Shown: positions 25,066-37,005 of the stretch, piece after piece
How the letters are laid out: every line of letters begins with the position of its first letter
Numbering within the stretch: position 1 is the stretch's first letter
Origin: an uncultured Methanosarcinaceae archaeon
GTDB lineage: Archaea > Halobacteriota > Methanosarcinia > Methanosarcinales > Methanosarcinaceae
Assembly (NCBI GenBank): GCA_963847185.1
Contig: CAWJYV010000007.1
Span: forward strand, 448,001 to 512,000
DNA length: 64,000 nucleotides
Direction: 5' to 3'
The notes under the pieces: model-generated
Seen by the model: only the letters and a program-made list of their open reading frames with translations
Databases searched by the model: none
What the model was told of the DNA's origin: nothing
Program-made: the position numbers and the translations under genes

Positions 25066-25728
25066 ATGACTGTAATAGGAGTAATCACACGAGGTAAATA
25101 CGGGCACCGTTTGATTGAGACCATCAAGGAACACAGCGATTTTTCAGTCGTCACTGCTGACCTTCCTGAGTTCGTGCCCGTTTTCATTGAAGAACCTGAT
25201 GAATTTCTGGAAAATCTGGATTTCGACCGCCGTGTTTTTTCTGCCGAAATTATAATTACTTACTCCCTGCATCCTGACCTGACATTTTCAATTGCGAAGC
25301 TTGCTGCAGAAGCCGGTGTACGCTCCCTCATTATTCCAGGAGGGCCGTCCAAAGCTTCAATCCCTGATCTAAAAAAGATTTCTGAAACTTCGGGCATGGA
25401 CATCGAGGTTGATGAGATTTGCTGCACCCTTGAACCCAACGCCTTCAACAAACCATTCGCAGATCTGTTTGGATCTCCTATCCTGAAAGTAAAAACGAAA
25501 GATGGAAATATTTCAGAAGTTGAAGTTCTAAAAGGAGCTCCTTGCGGAAGTACCTGGCATATGGCAAAAGAAATTGTTGGAACTTCTGTCAAAGACGCCC
25601 CTCCAAAGGCAGGTCTATTGATCCAGCATTATCCCTGCAGGGCGTCGCGTGGTGATCTTGGAGGGATACATGAATCAGGGGAATTGCATAAGCAAGCATT
25701 TATTAAAGCTCTTGAGAGTAAGGATTGA
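25066..25728 (+). CDS. DUF166 family protein
   Basis: LHPDL, ICC.L, GAPCGSTW, HYPCRA motifs. Confidence 0.8.
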   Translation: MTVIGVITRGKYGHRLIETIKEHSDFSVVTADLPEFVPVFIEEPDEFLENLDFDRRVFSAEIIITYSLHPDLTFSIAKLAAEAGVRSLIIPGGPSKASIPDLKKISETSGMDIEVDEICCTLEPNAFNKPFADLFGSPILKVKTKDGNISEVEVLKGAPCGSTWHMAKEIVGTSVKDAPPKAGLLIQHYPCRASRGDLGGIHESGELHKQAFIKALESKD

Positions 25729-28380: not shown

Positions 28381-29238
28381 ATGCTAAAGGAATTGCAGAA
28401 AAAAAGAACCGATTTGAAGAATATTGCTGAAGAATCCAAGGACAAAAGAAACGCTTTAAATGCAGAGGCCAGTACTCTTGCCGCAAAGCGTAACGACCTT
28501 AACAAGAAGACAAAAGATCTTATCAACGAGGCTCAGGAATTAAAAGTCCTTAGAGACGAGGTCAATGAGAAAGTCAGCGATTGCAAGAATAAGCGCGATG
28601 ACACAAACTCCAGGGCAAATGAACTTTTTGCAAAGGCAGACTCCATCAGAAAACAAAACAATCTTGGTGGACCTTCTATCAAAGCCCTGAGGAAAGATAT
28701 CGACCGTCTTGAATTCGCCCAGCAAACCGAGGTTCTGAGCACAAGCAAGGAAAGAGAGCTCGTCGGCAAGATTACTCAGCTTCAGAAGCAGTATCATATC
28801 AAAAAAGTCCAGCTTGAGGACAACCTTGAACTGAAGAATATTCTGGACGAAGCTCAGCAAATTAGGGACGAAGCCTCAGTATTCCACAACGAGATGGCAG
28901 AGTATGCCAGACAGGCTCAGGAATATCATGAGAAGATGATTACCGCTTTCAAGGAAGCTGACAGAACCAGGGCAGAATCTGACATTGCCCACAGGGAATT
29001 TGTAAAAGCCCAGGAAGCAGCTGACGAGCAGCATAAGGTTTTCATCAATGCCCAGAAAGAAATCCGGGACCTTGATAAAGAGATCTTTAAGCTTAAGAAG
29101 AAAGACAAAGATGGAAAGTCTCGTGTTGTCAAGTCCGAACTTCAGAAAGATGCCAAGTCTATCTTCGAGAAGTTCAAGGGCGGAGCAAAACTCACTACCG
29201 AAGACCTGATGACTCTTCAGAGATCTGGATTAGTCTGA
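28381..29238 (+). CDS. archaeal coiled-coil protein (COG1340-like)
   Basis: Heptad-rich; LEFAQQTEVLS..KERELV and C-terminal FKGGAKLTTEDLMTLQ. Confidence 0.85.
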   Translation: MLKELQKKRTDLKNIAEESKDKRNALNAEASTLAAKRNDLNKKTKDLINEAQELKVLRDEVNEKVSDCKNKRDDTNSRANELFAKADSIRKQNNLGGPSIKALRKDIDRLEFAQQTEVLSTSKERELVGKITQLQKQYHIKKVQLEDNLELKNILDEAQQIRDEASVFHNEMAEYARQAQEYHEKMITAFKEADRTRAESDIAHREFVKAQEAADEQHKVFINAQKEIRDLDKEIFKLKKKDKDGKSRVVKSELQKDAKSIFEKFKGGAKLTTEDLMTLQRSGLV

Positions 29239-29513: not shown

Positions 29514-30653
29514 TTACTCAAGGACCTTCAGATACTTTTCCCTGAACTCCGGGTTCCTCATAAGGCAGCATTTTGCGTTGTATATGGTTTCCTCTCTGAT
29601 TTTTTTCCAGACATCCCTTACTTTATCTCTATGTACATTCCCATATGGAATAGGGATGCATGCACAGGGGAGGATATTCCCTTCAGGGGTGATATGTAGC
29701 CACTTACGGCCTGCCATACAGCCTGTAGCTTTCATAACCAGCGGGATAGGAAAAACTCTGGGCCCTTCTTTTCCCCTGACCTGGGATACGAAATTTTCAA
29801 ATTTTCTCATGTCTTTTGGGGTCATGATCTCGGAAGCATGTTCCATCCACCTGCCTGTAGGAACTATCTCGTAGAAAGATAGTTCGTTGACCCCAAGATC
29901 TGCTGCAAGAGCAAATAGTTCTTCAAGCTCGTCTACATTGTCTCTGGAAAGCACCACATAGATATTTACAAGCAGCCCTGCTTTAAGTCCGTTTTTGACC
30001 GCTTCTACTGCACTCTTAAAAACTCCTCTCCTGCCTCTTACATAATCATGCTTCTCTTCATGCGCGCTGTCAAAACTGACAGTCAAAGAATACAGTCCTG
30101 CTTCTTTCAGGTGAATTGCCCGCTCTTCAGTAAGTCCTACGCCAGAGGTGAACATGCCAGCAATGGCTTTTTCTGGGTCCACATATCTTATCAGATCTTC
30201 TAATCCAGAATAGGTCAGGGGTTCTCCTCCATCAAAAATTATAAAGGTCGCCCCCATTTCGAGAACCTGATCAATTGTAGATTTAACGACTTCCGGCGCA
30301 AGTCTTACCCGGTTTTTCGTGTCAGGGAGAGCACAGTGAATACAGTTATTCGGACATTCTTCAGTGATGGAGATTGTAACCTGATCTGGAACCATCCTCC
30401 CCAGAAAAGAGAGAAACTGGCTTTTAATCAGGCGGTCAAAACCTGAACTTGGAACTGGAGGCATCCAGGTTGAACAGATAAGCCTGTCTTCTTCTATTTT
30501 TGCAGGCTTTTCACCTTCAAAGATTGAGAGGTTTTTCGCAAGATTTTTCCTCAGGAGGATAGACGCAGCCCCGCTGGTTTTCATCCTCATATGTCCTTCT
30601 TCTATTTCTGCATAAACTCTGAGAAGGGGGGTTTTATAAAAATCGTACTGCAT
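29514..30653 (-). CDS. radical SAM protein with SPASM/twitch domain
   Basis: ITEECPNNCIHC, DGGEP, GCMAG..ITPEGNILPC..GNV..CC. Confidence 0.9.
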   Translation of the reverse strand: MQYDFYKTPLLRVYAEIEEGHMRMKTSGAASILLRKNLAKNLSIFEGEKPAKIEEDRLICSTWMPPVPSSGFDRLIKSQFLSFLGRMVPDQVTISITEECPNNCIHCALPDTKNRVRLAPEVVKSTIDQVLEMGATFIIFDGGEPLTYSGLEDLIRYVDPEKAIAGMFTSGVGLTEERAIHLKEAGLYSLTVSFDSAHEEKHDYVRGRRGVFKSAVEAVKNGLKAGLLVNIYVVLSRDNVDELEELFALAADLGVNELSFYEIVPTGRWMEHASEIMTPKDMRKFENFVSQVRGKEGPRVFPIPLVMKATGCMAGRKWLHITPEGNILPCACIPIPYGNVHRDKVRDVWKKIREETIYNAKCCLMRNPEFREKYLKVLE

Positions 30654-30828
30654 ATTCTTTCCTGCACCAGTTTGATGCTGATGTTTGATCAATGTTTAAT
30701 GCTGAGGTTTATGATTTTTGAGTCTGAGATTTGTCTTATATTTGACATTGCTGTTCCTTTCTCAGCTCTTTTTTCTCAGTTTTTTGATTCGTTGTTTTTG
30801 ATTCATTATAATTGTTTCAAGTTCAGAT

Positions 30829-31987
30829 TCATTTATTCCTGAGAAATGCTCTGTACTTCAATATCGCAGAGGGTTTTTTCCTCAGTATAAATGCAAAGAC
30901 TTGCATTGCCTGCTCAATTGAACTTCCATGAATAAATGAGAGGTCTTCTTTCTCAAACACCGCCGCCATTTCGTCAATTTCGCGGTCTGTCATTTTTCTA
31001 AGCGTCTCAAGTCCTATGCGGCCTATGTAGTGTTCTGCCTTAAACTCCTTTTCCCAGCTCTTCCTATACTCTAAGAGAGCACTTTTTGAAACGTCTTCCT
31101 TTTTTACGGCATCTGCGGCTATATCTCCGCATATCTGGCCTGCTCTCATAGCATATCCTATTCCAGACTGCCCTGCTGCTCCTCCTACGATCATGACTCC
31201 ATCGGTTATGTACTCATTGGGGATTGTCACTATAGGGTCTCCGCCTGAAAGTTTCCGTACAACTTCAATTTCTTCTAGCCCTTTTAGCTTCTTGAACCTT
31301 TCAATCCAGGCGTTCAGGTAAGGTGTCGCATCTCTTCCGCATCTGCGCACATAGGCCCCGATTGCAGCATTATCTCCTCCTCTTGGGGCGTATGTAGTCT
31401 TCCATCCTGGGGCATGGTTTCCTACATAGTATTCAAACATTTTTGACTTTCCAAGGTCAGGAGCCCTGATGTCCAGTTCAACTCCCCAGGCAATATCTTC
31501 CGGGTGTTTCATTGTTTTTAGTCCCATAAGGGAAGCCATTTTTGAATTAATACCATCGGCGATTATAACGAGTTCTGACTTGAAATTCCCGGCAGACGTA
31601 TGGACAGTAAAATCTTTTCCCCTTTTTGAGGATATTATGAACTTCTGTTCCTGTTTGAATATTCACGCCGACTTTCTCTATTTTTTCTGCATAAAAACGG
31701 TCAAACTTTGTCTTGTCAATAGCGTATCCAGGTGTTTCAACTTCTACTATCCTTCCAGATGGAGAAATAATTTGCATACCTTTGAGATAATGCACCACAT
31801 ACGAGGGGTCTACTGTCTCTCCGCATTTATCGAGCATGCCCTTAAAAAAAGAATTTGCGGGATGGGGAGGATTTCCGATCTCTTTTTTTCTTTCCAGCAA
31901 AAGGACCGTAGAGCCTTTTTCACAGGCATTTCTCGCAGCCATCAGCCCTGCAGGAGATGCTCCGATTACAATAATATCTGCGTCCAT
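30829..31987 (-). pseudogene. geranylgeranyl reductase family flavoprotein, split by a +1 frameshift near 31620
   Basis: IIVIGASPAGL..LLERK; removing one base from AAAAAGGGGAAAAG restores KDFTVHTSAGNFKSELVIIADGINSKMA into ORF 30829..31539 (VGGAAGQSGIGYAM). Confidence 0.85.
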
Positions 31988-32002
31988 TTTTCTCTACCTT
32001 TT

Positions 32003-32953
32003 TTACCAGAGAATAGAGGTATAAGCTCCCACATAAATGCACAGCACCACATCAAGGATCATTGACCCAAACATAATTGCTCTGTAGTTTGAGCCGTTAA
32101 GGAAGAGTGCGCCGCCTCTCTCAGGGGTGGGATGTTTGATAAAGTCAAAACATTGCATAAGCATCCAGAGCCCTGAAGCAAGGGCTCCTGCAAAATACAC
32201 AGGTCCGAGCTGAGCTGACCAGCCTATGATTACTGAGGCAATAACCCCGATAACCCACCAGAAAGTAACGAATCTGGCAGTTAAAGGAATTCCAAAGGTT
32301 ACTGGAAGTGTTGGAGCACCTTTCAGCCTGTCTCCTTCAACATCTCTGGCAACACCTCCAAGGGTAAAAGCCCAGTCCGTAACACACATCATGAGCCCGA
32401 AACAGATCGCTGAGAGGGGCAGAATTACTCCGTCGCTGCCTTTCAGAATCCCAGCCGGGTCAAAGGCAAGCCAGACACCAACAGGTACAAGCCCGTATGA
32501 AATTCCCACAGGCAGAAAGCTGAGGAAAGTACTCCTCTTTGCAAAGATTGAATAAACAGTAATAATCCCCGCCGCGATAAAAAGAATCAGGAGAGACTCA
32601 GGGTTCAGGTAAAAGGCCGCTGCACCTGCAATTCCCAAAAGCAGGATTGCATAAGCAAGTGCTGCACTCTTTGAAACTCTGGAAGAAGGCAAAGGGCGAT
32701 TTGGAATATTGATTGTATCAATATCAACATCACACCAGTCATTAAAAACATATGAACTTGTAATAGCTGCAAAGCCTCCTATGACTGCAATCAGGAAGGG
32801 TAATAATTCAGGAAGCCCTCCGGTCGCCAGGTAAGAAGCCAGGATTGCACTCGAGGCCGGGAGGGTGAGATCCATGTAGTAGAGTTCGGGTCTCAAAAGC
32901 CGGAGATAAGGGCTGATTTCCCCGATCCTTGCTGTAAGGGACAATAGTTTCAC
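32003..32953 (-). CDS. UbiA family prenyltransferase
   Basis: NDWCDVDIDTINIPNRPLPS and RDVEGDRLKGAPTLP Asp-rich motifs; about 9 TM helices. Confidence 0.92.
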   Translation of the reverse strand: MKLLSLTARIGEISPYLRLLRPELYYMDLTLPASSAILASYLATGGLPELLPFLIAVIGGFAAITSSYVFNDWCDVDIDTINIPNRPLPSSRVSKSAALAYAILLLGIAGAAAFYLNPESLLILFIAAGIITVYSIFAKRSTFLSFLPVGISYGLVPVGVWLAFDPAGILKGSDGVILPLSAICFGLMMCVTDWAFTLGGVARDVEGDRLKGAPTLPVTFGIPLTARFVTFWWVIGVIASVIIGWSAQLGPVYFAGALASGLWMLMQCFDFIKHPTPERGGALFLNGSNYRAIMFGSMILDVVLCIYVGAYTSILW

Positions 32954-35100: not shown

Positions 35101-37005
35101 TTGTGGCAATTAAAAAAAATTGGAATATTATTAGTTCTAATAGGCTTTGCACTACAGGCCGCTATTGGCAGTGCAGCAGCTACAACGTTTTACGTTGACA
35201 CTGGAGGGCAGGGAAATTACACAACGATCCAGAGTGCTGTAAATGACGCTAGCGAGGGCGACACGATCATAGTCAATTCTGGAGTGTATTCTGAGAGAGT
35301 TACTGTGGATAAGATGATTATTTTAAAAGGCGCGTCAGGCTATCCAACAGTTGTCGATGGATTTGAAATAGATGCAGCTGGTACCCAGGTAAATGGGTTT
35401 ACCATTAAAGGTTGGATCTGGTTTGATATGGGAGCTGGATCCTGCATCATCCGGAACAATAGATTTGAAGGAGCCGGCGTGAGTATAGGTAACAACTATC
35501 TTCATGGAAATCAGACTATAATAAATAACATCTTTACGGACAGTTCAGCCGCTATATCAACATATGATAGTATGGACAATAAAATTATCGGAAATAAGAT
35601 TCAAAACTGTAGTACAGGTGTAGAGCTTTTGTCCGGGGGAGGAGGCCACGTCATTACCGGAAATAATATCACAGATTGTGATGTGGGCATAAAATTATCC
35701 GATGAATCTGCTACAATTTATAATAACTACTTCAATAACAATATTAACCTGCAGACAGCAGATGAATTTGCAGGAACAACTCTAAACACTACTAAAACAA
35801 AAGATACAAACATAATAGGCGGTCCTTACATAGGTGGTAACTTCTGGGGCTCTCCTTCAGGAGACGGGTTTTCTCAGACTCAGTTAGATGCAAATAATGA
35901 TGGTATCGCTGAGTCTATATTTCAAATAAATGAGAATATCATTGACTACATGCCTCTGATAATCTCCAGAGCCGAGCCTGTGCCTTCACTTCCAGTAGCA
36001 AATTTCCAGATAAATATCAGTCAGGGCCCTGCTCCTCTTTCTGTTACATTTACTGATCTTTCTGAAAATATAGTTTCGAGGAGCTGGGACTTTGAAAATG
36101 ACGGAAAGATCGACTCTACAGGCAAAACCGAAGTCCATGTGTATATTGTCCCAGGAACATATACAGTAAATCTTACAGTTGCCAATGAGATTGGACTAGC
36201 TTCGAAACTTGCCACGATAACTGTTACAGAAACAAATGGAAATAGTGGAACAGAGAACACCGGAACGAGTGGAGATTCTTCTGATGGTGGAGATAGTGAT
36301 GGAGGCAATCACCACAGCAATGGTGGTGGAGGCGGTGCAGGGGGATCTCCTGAACCTCAAAAGAATGTTGACGTCAAGGAACTCTCACAAGCATTTGTCA
36401 CAAGTGGAAAAAATGTAAAGTTTGATTTTACGAAGAATGCAACATGTGTTGTTTATGTGACTTTTGGTTCAAAAAAGACCTTTGGAAAGACCACAGCTAT
36501 TGCTGAAATGCTGAAAAATAAATCTTCTCTTGTTTCCGAGCTTCCTGAAGGTGAAGTTTATAAATCCTTTAATGTGTGGGTAGGGAACGGTGGAATAGCT
36601 TCAGAGGAAAACATTGAGAATCCTGTCCTTTGTTTTAAGGTTGAAAAGTCCTGGCTTCAGGATAAAAGTATAGATCCGGCTTCAATCGCCCTCAACTGGT
36701 ATAACGATAAAAAATGGGAGCAGATTCCGGTTAATATGTCAGGGGAAGATGAATACTATCTGTATTTTACGGCCAATGTTTCTGGATTCTCTTCTTTTGC
36801 AATAACAGGAAAATCAAATGACACTGCTGCACAGGAAGTTTCTAAGCAACAGGAAGATAATTTACCTTTCATTGGATCAGTAAGGCTGACCAGTGATGCC
36901 AATGACACTATAGTAAAAGGCGGCCCTGGAAAGAAAACTCCAGGATTTGAGTTTGTTTTTGGAACTGCCTGTTTCTTTGGTGCATTTTATTACAGACGAA
37001 AATAA
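35101..37005 (+). CDS. cell-surface protein: signal peptide, NosD/CASH beta-helix, PKD, Gly/Ser linker, PGF-pre-PGF and PGF-CTERM
   Basis: YTTIQSAVN, GGPYIGGNFW, PVANF..GPAPLSVTFTD, GGSPEPQKNV.VKE, GFSSFAITG, KTPGFE..YRRK. Confidence 0.92.
   Translation: MWQLKKIGILLVLIGFALQAAIGSAAATTFYVDTGGQGNYTTIQSAVNDASEGDTIIVNSGVYSERVTVDKMIILKGASGYPTVVDGFEIDAAGTQVNGFTIKGWIWFDMGAGSCIIRNNRFEGAGVSIGNNYLHGNQTIINNIFTDSSAAISTYDSMDNKIIGNKIQNCSTGVELLSGGGGHVITGNNITDCDVGIKLSDESATIYNNYFNNNINLQTADEFAGTTLNTTKTKDTNIIGGPYIGGNFWGSPSGDGFSQTQLDANNDGIAESIFQINENIIDYMPLIISRAEPVPSLPVANFQINISQGPAPLSVTFTDLSENIVSRSWDFENDGKIDSTGKTEVHVYIVPGTYTVNLTVANEIGLASKLATITVTETNGNSGTENTGTSGDSSDGGDSDGGNHHSNGGGGGAGGSPEPQKNVDVKELSQAFVTSGKNVKFDFTKNATCVVYVTFGSKKTFGKTTAIAEMLKNKSSLVSELPEGEVYKSFNVWVGNGGIASEENIENPVLCFKVEKSWLQDKSIDPASIALNWYNDKKWEQIPVNMSGEDEYYLYFTANVSGFSSFAITGKSNDTAAQEVSKQQEDNLPFIGSVRLTSDANDTIVKGGPGKKTPGFEFVFGTACFFGAFYYRRK

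Follow-up and report, generated by a model that had tools for sequence, protein, structure and literature searches.

A conserved UbiA prenyltransferase, GGR-like flavoprotein and radical SAM operon of Methanosarcinaceae as a candidate methanophenazine biosynthesis module

The stretch of DNA analysed here (the window, 64,000 nucleotides; G000:C7:448001-512000) comes from the genome of an uncultured Methanosarcinaceae archaeon, G000, which comprises 4.04 Mb in 10 contigs. Between positions 29514 and 32953 the minus strand of the window carries genes for a UbiA-superfamily prenyltransferase (hereafter UbiA), a flavoprotein resembling geranylgeranyl reductase (GGR) and a radical S-adenosylmethionine (SAM) enzyme, rSAM_B, a trio that is considered here as a candidate module for the biosynthesis of methanophenazine. 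Listing of the open reading frames (ORFs) gave four open frames in this interval, UbiA, two pieces of the reductase and the radical SAM enzyme, and the features are as follows.

32003..32953, minus strand: UbiA-superfamily membrane prenyltransferase, 316 aa (PF01040, 144.7 bits).
31547..31987, minus strand: GGR-like flavoprotein, N-terminal piece, 146 aa, with the Rossmann FAD site and the PPHPAN motif and an out-of-frame tail at its end (TIGR02032, 51.8 bits).
31613..31626, minus strand: A5G4A4 run with one inserted nucleotide, which disrupts the GGR-like gene (seen against the aligned DNA of three relatives and against contigs of runs X1, X2 and X20).
30829..31539, minus strand: GGR-like flavoprotein, C-terminal piece, 236 aa, with the GGAAGQ motif (NF041160, 37.4 bits; TIGR02032, 27.8 bits).
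29514..30692, minus strand: radical SAM/SPASM-twitch enzyme rSAM_B, 392 aa, its N-terminal ~100 residues forming a domain specific to the family (PF04055, 76.6 bits; PF13186, 28 bits).

The original prediction, made from the letters alone, described three co-oriented genes at this position, and the minus-strand ORFs and their profile matches agree with it. The spacing of 15 nucleotides that it gave between UbiA and the reductase was also confirmed, measured from the UbiA stop codon to the reductase ATG at 31987; 136 nucleotides separate the reductase from the radical SAM gene in G000. The reductase, which it treated as one gene, is split into two ORFs in G000 by a frameshift that had been missed. 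Three-frame translation showed that the frame switches within the A5G4A4 run, near 31615-31625, and that the C-terminal piece joins the N-terminal piece in frame 2. The extra base was missing from all three relatives aligned at the insertion site, the GGR-like gene was in frame in loci L002 and L019-L022, and metagenome contigs of three runs that cover the site (X1 record 2, X2 record 11, and X20 at 31621) were each one base shorter. No public sequencing run contained half or more of the words of the stretch, so the insertion is either a mutation private to this strain or an assembly error, the two being indistinguishable. The greater part of the trio is covered by contigs, 90-99% alike, from the metatranscriptome run X20, which hints weakly that a relative transcribes these genes.

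UbiA matches PF01040 over residues 35-286 with 144.7 bits against a cut-off of 34.2, which places it in the UbiA superfamily. Enzymes of this superfamily bind Mg-diphosphate through NDxxDxxxD and DxxxD motifs, and both Asp-rich motifs (N71-D72-x2-D75-x-D77-x-D79 and D204-x3-D208) were invariant in 11 orthologs. An NCBIfam profile search left UbiA below every curated cut-off. The top match was PRK12884 (111 bits, cut-off 269); the models for digeranylgeranylglyceryl phosphate (DGGGP) synthase, NF009521 and NF009522, gave 92.1 bits (cut-off 296) and 73.8 bits (353), the quinone models MqnP_DT, ubiA_proteo and ubiA_other gave 53.4 (430), 57 (275) and 84 bits (180.8), and the heme O synthase model cyoE_ctaB gave 80 bits (210). 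The genuine DGGGP synthase of G000 is encoded elsewhere, at L133:1558-2427, and scores 410.7 bits on NF009521. In a tree of 24 proteins, rooted at the midpoint and with its deeper forks unresolved, the DGGGP synthase clade (support 100/98) left out all 16 UbiA orthologs, which were linked to it via branches of 2.1 and 3.5 changes per site. Placement in a tree relative to DGGGP synthases had been proposed as a check by the original prediction, and its outcome, with a score of 92 against 296 bits, indicates that UbiA is not a DGGGP synthase. The solved structure nearest to UbiA by sequence is nevertheless the DGGGP synthase of M. jannaschii (6m31, 47 bits), with which it shares the superfamily and both Asp-rich motifs; it differs from that enzyme in its score below the NF009521 cut-off, in its position outside the clade and in the presence of a separate true DGGGP synthase in the genome.

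For comparisons the broken reductase was represented by its intact ortholog L031:7763-8920 (385 aa, 97% identical). With the GGR family (TIGR02032; structure 3oz2 of T. acidophilum) this protein shares a match of 357 aligned residues, 4-360, to 3oz2 (E 4e-29) and the Rossmann GxGxxG FAD site ('VIGASPAG'), but its score on TIGR02032, 113.9 bits, lies below the subfamily cut-off of 158.8. It also differs in two motifs. The GGR family is defined by a cysteine near the flavin, in the 'RCGEG' stretch, and by a GDAA motif. The Cys stretch 'PVRCGEG' of 3oz2 is replaced by 'PPHPANS' in the GGR-like protein, and GDAA by GGAA(GQ), followed by a six-residue deletion; PHPANSFF and VGGAAGQ, which had been pointed out as odd by the original prediction, are both present in the translations. 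Because both changes were invariant in eight orthologs from four families, they are the mark of a distinct subfamily and not of decay. Ogawa and colleagues are said to have described, in 2014 in FEBS J, a GGR with unusual regiospecificity. In the part of a review that was available (PMC10821996), the Ogawa 2014 enzyme is paraphrased as specific for the omega-terminal position. Three GGRs of M. acetivorans are given as 45-47 kDa in the accessible text of PMC6309074; identity of the GGR-like protein with any of these was not adopted, since it has 385 aa and those are larger.

The scores of rSAM_B on PF04055 (76.6 bits, cut-off 29.5) and PF13186 (28 bits, cut-off 21.5) place it among the radical SAM enzymes with a SPASM/twitch domain. 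Its CX3CX2C motif is C113-x3-C117-x2-C120, and C113, C117, C120, C325, C343 and C376 were nearly invariant in 70 sequences. The top NCBIfam matches were AhbD (121.9 bits), NirJ2 (121.4 bits) and PqqE, all at about 112-122 bits against cut-offs of 381-500. The equivalog cut-offs of AhbD (500) and of AhbC (650, against 87.7 bits scored) were not reached; other loci of G000 encode the genuine AhbD (637.5 bits) and AhbC (776.8 bits). Judged by profile scores, none of the three window enzymes belongs to a named enzyme family.

An AlphaFold model of rSAM_B (pLDDT 94.6) was compared with solved structures by VIA-align. Residues ~80-390 matched SkfB (6efn; Z 27.1, rmsd 3.3, 288 aligned), and further matches were BlsE (7vob, Z 24.8), SuiB (5v1t, Z 24.5) and PqqE (6c8v, Z 23.6). 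In the model the fold match ties peptide-modifying with small-molecule enzymes, and the substrate class of rSAM_B would not be inferable from it. The protein resembles the SPASM/twitch enzymes (SkfB, SuiB, BlsE and PqqE, and by profile AhbD and NirJ) in its CX3CX2C core and C-terminal auxiliary-cluster domain. It differs in lying far under every curated cut-off and in having, over its first 100 residues or so, a conserved domain marked by an invariant S-x-W-x-P-P-x-P motif. An RRE-like (PqqD-like) identity for this domain gained no support from its fold: the N-terminal 100 residues folded alone (pLDDT 81.6) reached a top Z of 3.6 among 48,161 chains, a result still compatible with an RRE fold. 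Among 1.84 billion proteins, 187 cluster representatives matched rSAM_B at E <= 1e-30, and about 23 of the best 150 matches aligned from before residue 36, that is, included the N-terminal domain. Two paralogs are encoded in G000.

C8:525575-526849: rSAM_A, 42% identical to rSAM_B.
C7:205961-207181 (L029:5962-7182, minus strand): rSAM_C, 36% identical to rSAM_B, outside the window.

Searches by tblastn found one clear ortholog each of A, B and C in all five other genomes searched (G025, G035, G042, G059 and G298). In the Methanosarcina clade (genera g1, g17 and g24) rSAM_C has lost the CX3CX2C motif in 8/8 sequences and contains 1-4 cysteines against 7-13, while remaining 67-84% conserved; the motif is kept in rSAM_C of 22 other sequences of the same family and of four from other families (loci L138-L167). 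The Methanosarcina-clade rSAM_C looks like a retained, cluster-less 'pseudo radical SAM' protein, maybe a scaffold. In-frame TAG or TGA codons were seen in radical SAM orthologs at G298:C10:8078-9214, G298:C6:72999-74165 and G042:C9:233775-234911.

Gene order around the trio is conserved. The order TgtA, UbiA, GGR-like, rSAM, DUF7121, SerB, Mtd was found in all four complete genomes of the genus, and when coordinates of one or two genomes per genus were compared across 14 genera of family f1, the trio was contiguous in 13. In the remaining genus, g19 (G179 and G238), UbiA lies on another contig and the GGR-like and radical SAM genes are still adjacent. With the three genes adjoining in all but one of the genera compared, the arrangement exceeds chance and represents a conserved operon. 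Beyond f1 the genes occur in varied pairings: UbiA and rSAM_B are neighbours in 3/3 f8 genomes, the GGR-like gene adjoins rSAM_B in f11, UbiA adjoins the GGR-like gene in 4/4 f2 loci, and in f34 UbiA, an rSAM_A-like gene and the GGR-like gene lie side by side. The three genes are dispersed in f7. Among 142 flanking ORFs surveyed with Pfam across 18 loci, no additional gene recurred as a partner.

A second genomic association involves the synthase of a C25 chain. The rSAM_A gene begins 36 nucleotides downstream of a polyprenyl synthase gene (G000:C8:524652-525539) whose product, with 573 bits on NF040627 (GFPS_Meth), falls just below the cut-off of 600 and is predicted by family match to be a geranylfarnesyl diphosphate (GFPP) synthase. 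In the available portion of PMC6315138, this synthase is the sole enzyme tied in print to methanophenazine, for which Ogawa 2010 is cited as showing that it is required, and the GFPP synthase activity of the M. mazei enzyme is cited as established. The adjacency of the two genes was also found in G059 (f7) and twice in G298 (f11), giving three of the six genomes and four of the seven loci inspected; it was not found in G042 and G025, and the contig of G035 begins at the gene. The GFPP synthase of Methanosarcina (NF040627) is like the system described here in that its gene pairs with rSAM_A, a paralog of the rSAM_B of the window; it differs in being encoded outside the window, and in G000 by its score of 573 against 600.

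Several loci showed further features of their own. In G496 (f34), which lies outside the class, a compact cluster (L130:8847-14308, with L132) contains the UbiA ortholog (46%), the rSAM_A-like gene, the GGR-like gene (33%), ThiC and a second UbiA (30%), and the same order is repeated in G452. ThiC was rejected as a pathway member, being a bona fide ThiC (562 bits) and housekeeping; the radical SAM gene beside the GGR-like gene in L018 was likewise rejected as a housekeeping CofG (429 bits). In f3 (L015, L016 and L018) the UbiA ortholog directly follows the gene for A-type ATP synthase subunit C in 3/3 loci with an upstream flank, and the Methanosarcina pair of GFPP synthase and rSAM_A lies about 1 kb upstream of ATP synthase genes for subunits I, E and C (G000:C8:524652-531971). 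Both UbiA copies of G298 (f11; L122:7670-9071 and L123:981-3878) lie within 2-4 kb of genes for CCG-domain (HdrD/HdrB-like) and 4Fe-4S proteins.

To determine the taxonomic distribution of the trio, 251 genomes of the class were surveyed per search, with G000 counted in addition to f1. Orthologs were accepted at E <= 1e-40 for UbiA, E <= 3e-60 for the GGR-like protein and E <= 1e-50 for the radical SAM family, and the genomes with each gene were as follows.

f1: UbiA 111/111, GGR-like 111/111, radical SAM 111/111.
f2: UbiA 7/7, GGR-like 7/7, radical SAM 7/7.
f3: UbiA 3/3, GGR-like 3/3, radical SAM 3/3.
f7: UbiA 99/105, GGR-like 91/105, radical SAM 105/105.
f8: UbiA 3/3, GGR-like 3/3, radical SAM 3/3.
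f4: UbiA 0/19, GGR-like 0/19, radical SAM 0/19.
f5: UbiA 0/1, GGR-like 0/1, radical SAM 0/1.
f6: UbiA 0/1, GGR-like 0/1, radical SAM 0/1.

UbiA was thus present in 223, the GGR-like protein in 215 and the radical SAM family, usually in three copies per genome, in all of the 229 genomes of f1, f2, f3, f7 and f8. None of the three was found in the 21 genomes of the sister families f4, f5 and f6, where the GGR-like query gave matches of 1e-31 to 1e-36 or none. Comparison of the phylogenetic profile with methanophenazine producers, a further check that the original prediction had put forward, found the operon in all 111 sampled f1 genomes. In a survey of 401 genomes of the phylum, UbiA orthologs were present in f1 (52/52), f2 (2/2), f7 (12/12), f11 (3/4, at 60-62% identity) and f34 (3/3, at 45-48%), and in 0/327 genomes of the other 31 families. 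Named records with orthologs included Methanosarcina, Methanohalophilus, Methanohalobium, Methanosalsum, ANME-3 and metagenome-assembled genomes of the ANME-2 cluster.

The futalosine menaquinone genes show the opposite pattern. MqnA/MqnD (PF02621) scored 216-270 bits in all five UbiA-negative genomes searched (three of f4 and one each of f5 and f6), whereas they were missing from four of five UbiA-positive representatives and from 5/5 genomes of f11 and f34. The fifth UbiA-positive representative, G006, gave a weak match of 26.5 bits; the next two ORFs have paralogs in the genome, and the match was read as part of an ABC-transporter operon and dropped. In the Mqn-bearing genome G029, an MqnP-like UbiA (TIGR01475, 311 bits) is encoded two genes after the MqnA/MqnD-family gene (PF02621). 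The distribution of UbiA is therefore complementary to that of the futalosine menaquinone genes. Which lineages use methanophenazine was taken from the available part of PMC9012536 and from general knowledge; there, ANME-2a/b/c and ANME-3 are inferred to use methanophenazine, and futalosine genes are noted in ANME-1 only. The split fits the view that ANME-2a/b/c, ANME-3 and the Methanosarcinaceae use methanophenazine and other lineages menaquinone (PMC9012536, in the same part). The three genes are thus confined to lineages thought to use methanophenazine and were not found in sister lineages with futalosine genes. HdrE was tried as a proxy for methanophenazine use and abandoned as non-discriminating, because it occurs in an Mqn-bearing genome yet had no match in f11 and f34.

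Methanophenazine, a quinone-like compound, carries electrons in the membranes of methanogens that use acetate and methyl compounds and in those of marine methane oxidisers. According to Abken in 1998 and Beifuss in 2000, it is reportedly an ether of 2-hydroxyphenazine with a C25 chain whose first unit is saturated. We consider it reasonably probable, from sequence and gene context, that the trio is a conserved operon of the methanophenazine pathway, in which UbiA would attach the tail, the flavoprotein would saturate the first unit and the role of the radical SAM enzyme is left open. GFPP synthase, encoded elsewhere next to rSAM_A, would make the C25 diphosphate. UbiA would then ionise the diphosphate and link the chain to the hydroxyl group of 2-hydroxyphenazine, or to that of a precursor, at which step the double bond of the first unit should still be allylic, and the GGR-like flavoprotein would subsequently saturate that double bond. 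The radical SAM enzyme and its paralogs A and C might assemble or modify the head group, or use a prenylated intermediate as substrate. The original prediction of a methanophenazine module stands as a candidate, not as an assignment, because the genes are confined to lineages presumed to use methanophenazine and a radical SAM paralog lies beside the C25 synthase; the analyses gave neither a grouping of UbiA with DGGGP synthases nor an absence of the operon from those lineages.

A wider proposal, which we put forward tentatively and think somewhat unlikely, is that UbiA, the GGR-like protein, rSAM_A, rSAM_B, rSAM_C and GFPP synthase jointly constitute the central part of a methanophenazine route in archaea, with a head group made by radical SAM chemistry and not by the bacterial chorismate-based Phz enzymes. 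In such a route the family-specific N-terminal domain of the radical SAM enzymes would bind the precursor. A search of G000 for PhzA/B (PF03284) gave no match, but as the control genomes gave none either, this result carries no weight for the proposal. If true, methanophenazine would have the third archaeal redox head group built in this way, after F420 (CofG/H) and futalosine (MqnC/E).

A precedent for a prenyl-phenazine ether made by the UbiA family is CnqPT1 of a marine Streptomyces, reportedly a membrane-bound UbiA-type 1,6-dihydroxyphenazine O-prenyltransferase; likened here by description only, it differs in being bacterial and in using a short prenyl donor. The quinone side-chain modules (MenA, UbiA or MqnP with a GGR-family reductase) also combine a membrane UbiA with a GGR-fold flavoprotein, and their product, as presumably here, is a membrane redox lipid, the set in the window being complementary to the futalosine pathway. 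The operon differs from them in that it contains no quinone head-group genes, that its UbiA lies under every MqnP, MenA and UbiA cut-off, that the expected bond would be an aryl ether rather than C-C, and that three dedicated radical SAM paralogs are present.

The literature offers partial pointers. The methanophenazine pathway is described as not identified in the accessible part of a 2018 paper (PMC6315138), which refers in broad terms to 'UbiA' homologs. Involvement of ubiA in making methanophenazine is hypothesised in a preprint of 2022 (bioRxiv 10.1101/2022.07.20.500911), and a 2018 paper, in the excerpt available, speculates on UbiX/UbiD. No published assignment of a methanophenazine prenyltransferase, or of a radical SAM role, was found in the literature searched, which for 2023 onwards took in 40 of 90 papers on methanophenazine, and the portion of PMC11619418 available made no mention of prenyltransferase, UbiA, geranylgeranyl, radical SAM or isoprenoid. 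The statement of the original prediction that the enzymes for these steps are unassigned agrees with this outcome, as no published assignment was found for methanophenazine prenylation or reduction.

Several observations weigh against a role of the trio in methanophenazine biosynthesis. All of the support comes from guilt by association, and the genomes, being related, do not count as independent samples. The GGR-like protein has no conserved Cys and carries GGAA for GDAA, so that its catalytic competence is assumed, and if the frameshift is real the G000 strain lives without the reductase. An ortholog-grade GGR-like match was missing from 14 of the 105 f7 genomes, among them G095, G110 and G112, which are at least 94% complete. 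For GFPP synthase, the single f2 genome searched, G025 (100% complete), yielded no clear ortholog (top match 34%), and neither did G496 (f34). The families f11 and f34 carry the genes yet gave no HdrE match (0/4 and 0/3), which means that the product does not go with HdrDE in every lineage, and f18 and f19 have weak HdrE-like matches but neither this UbiA nor MqnA/D. Finally, the labels of f4 as Methanoperedens-like and f7 as Methanothrix-like are inferred from gene content and genome size.

Some of these observations would suit an operon that makes another prenylated membrane compound of the same lineages, such as an unknown lipid, a polyprenyl carrier or a second redox lipid, a reading that we think unlikely. 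The enzymes fall in no named family, the acceptor substrate is not readable from sequence, the f11 and f34 genomes have the genes without an HdrE match, and G025 (f2) yielded no ortholog of GFPP synthase. On the other side are the complementarity of the distribution to the Mqn genes and the repeated links to the C25 synthase; moreover, to our knowledge methanophenazine is the only prenylated compound with this taxonomic range. One candidate lipid is also accounted for, as the formation of hydroxyarchaeol is assigned to a homolog of phytoene desaturase (Mori 2015, cited in the available part of PMC10821996). It is very unlikely that UbiA and the GGR-like protein are spare ether-lipid enzymes, a DGGGP synthase and a lipid geranylgeranyl reductase acting on archaeol precursors. 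That the nearest solved structures are DGGGP synthase 6m31 (47 bits) and the lipid GGR 3oz2 (E 4e-29) would fit, but UbiA scores 92 against 296 on NF009521, on which the true enzyme at L133:1558-2427 scores 410.7, and the DGGGP synthase clade (100/98) leaves out all 16 orthologs across branches of 2.1 and 3.5 changes per site. In addition, the GGR-like protein is without the GGR Cys motif, and the Mqn-bearing sister families make ether lipids without any of these genes.

Slightly less probable still is a module that prenylates or tailors a tetrapyrrole, in a modification like that of heme O/A. The leading matches of rSAM_B to AhbD (121.9 bits) and NirJ2 (121.4 bits) and the 80 bits of UbiA on cyoE_ctaB point in that direction, but fall far under the cut-offs of 500 and 210; the genuine AhbD (637.5) and AhbC (776.8) are encoded elsewhere in G000, no known heme tail would match the link to a C25 synthase, and the whole set is missing from f4, which we take to be cytochrome-rich. 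Least probable of all is that the three genes are mere neighbours with no shared pathway. The 136-nucleotide gap between reductase and radical SAM gene in G000, the dispersal of the genes in f7 and the housekeeping nature of most other neighbours would be expected in that case, whereas across 251 genomes the three families are present together and lost together, and they lie side by side in varied pairings in f1, f2, f8, f11 and f34.

The genes next to the operon, and a second prenyl cluster close to the window, were also recorded.

25066-25728, plus strand: DUF166 protein, with a weak match to the DfsP (seleno)protein model (96.6 bits against 200).
28381-29238, plus strand: DUF7121 protein, kept in synteny.
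35101-37005, plus strand: NosD/PKD/PGF-pre-PGF surface protein.

The second cluster lies at G000:C7:441519-446756 (L030), 1.2-6.5 kb upstream of window position 1. It contains genes for a radical SAM/SPASM protein (386 aa), an EgtD-like Methyltransf_33 protein and an amidinotransferase/ADI-like protein and two tandem UbiA genes, which score 521 and 582 bits on NF009511 ('prenyltransferase'); the cluster is distinct from the operon.

Organisms that use methanophenazine account for much of biological methane turnover. The present analysis offers a defined and strongly co-distributed gene set, comprising the three genes of the window and three elsewhere in the genome. If its assignment to methanophenazine biosynthesis is true, the question of how this carrier is made would become directly testable in the genetically tractable Methanosarcina, and the set would provide a sequence marker that sorts genomes into a methanophenazine type and a menaquinone type. 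Enzymology would likewise gain access to a new subfamily of radical SAM enzymes and to an atypical prenyl reductase.

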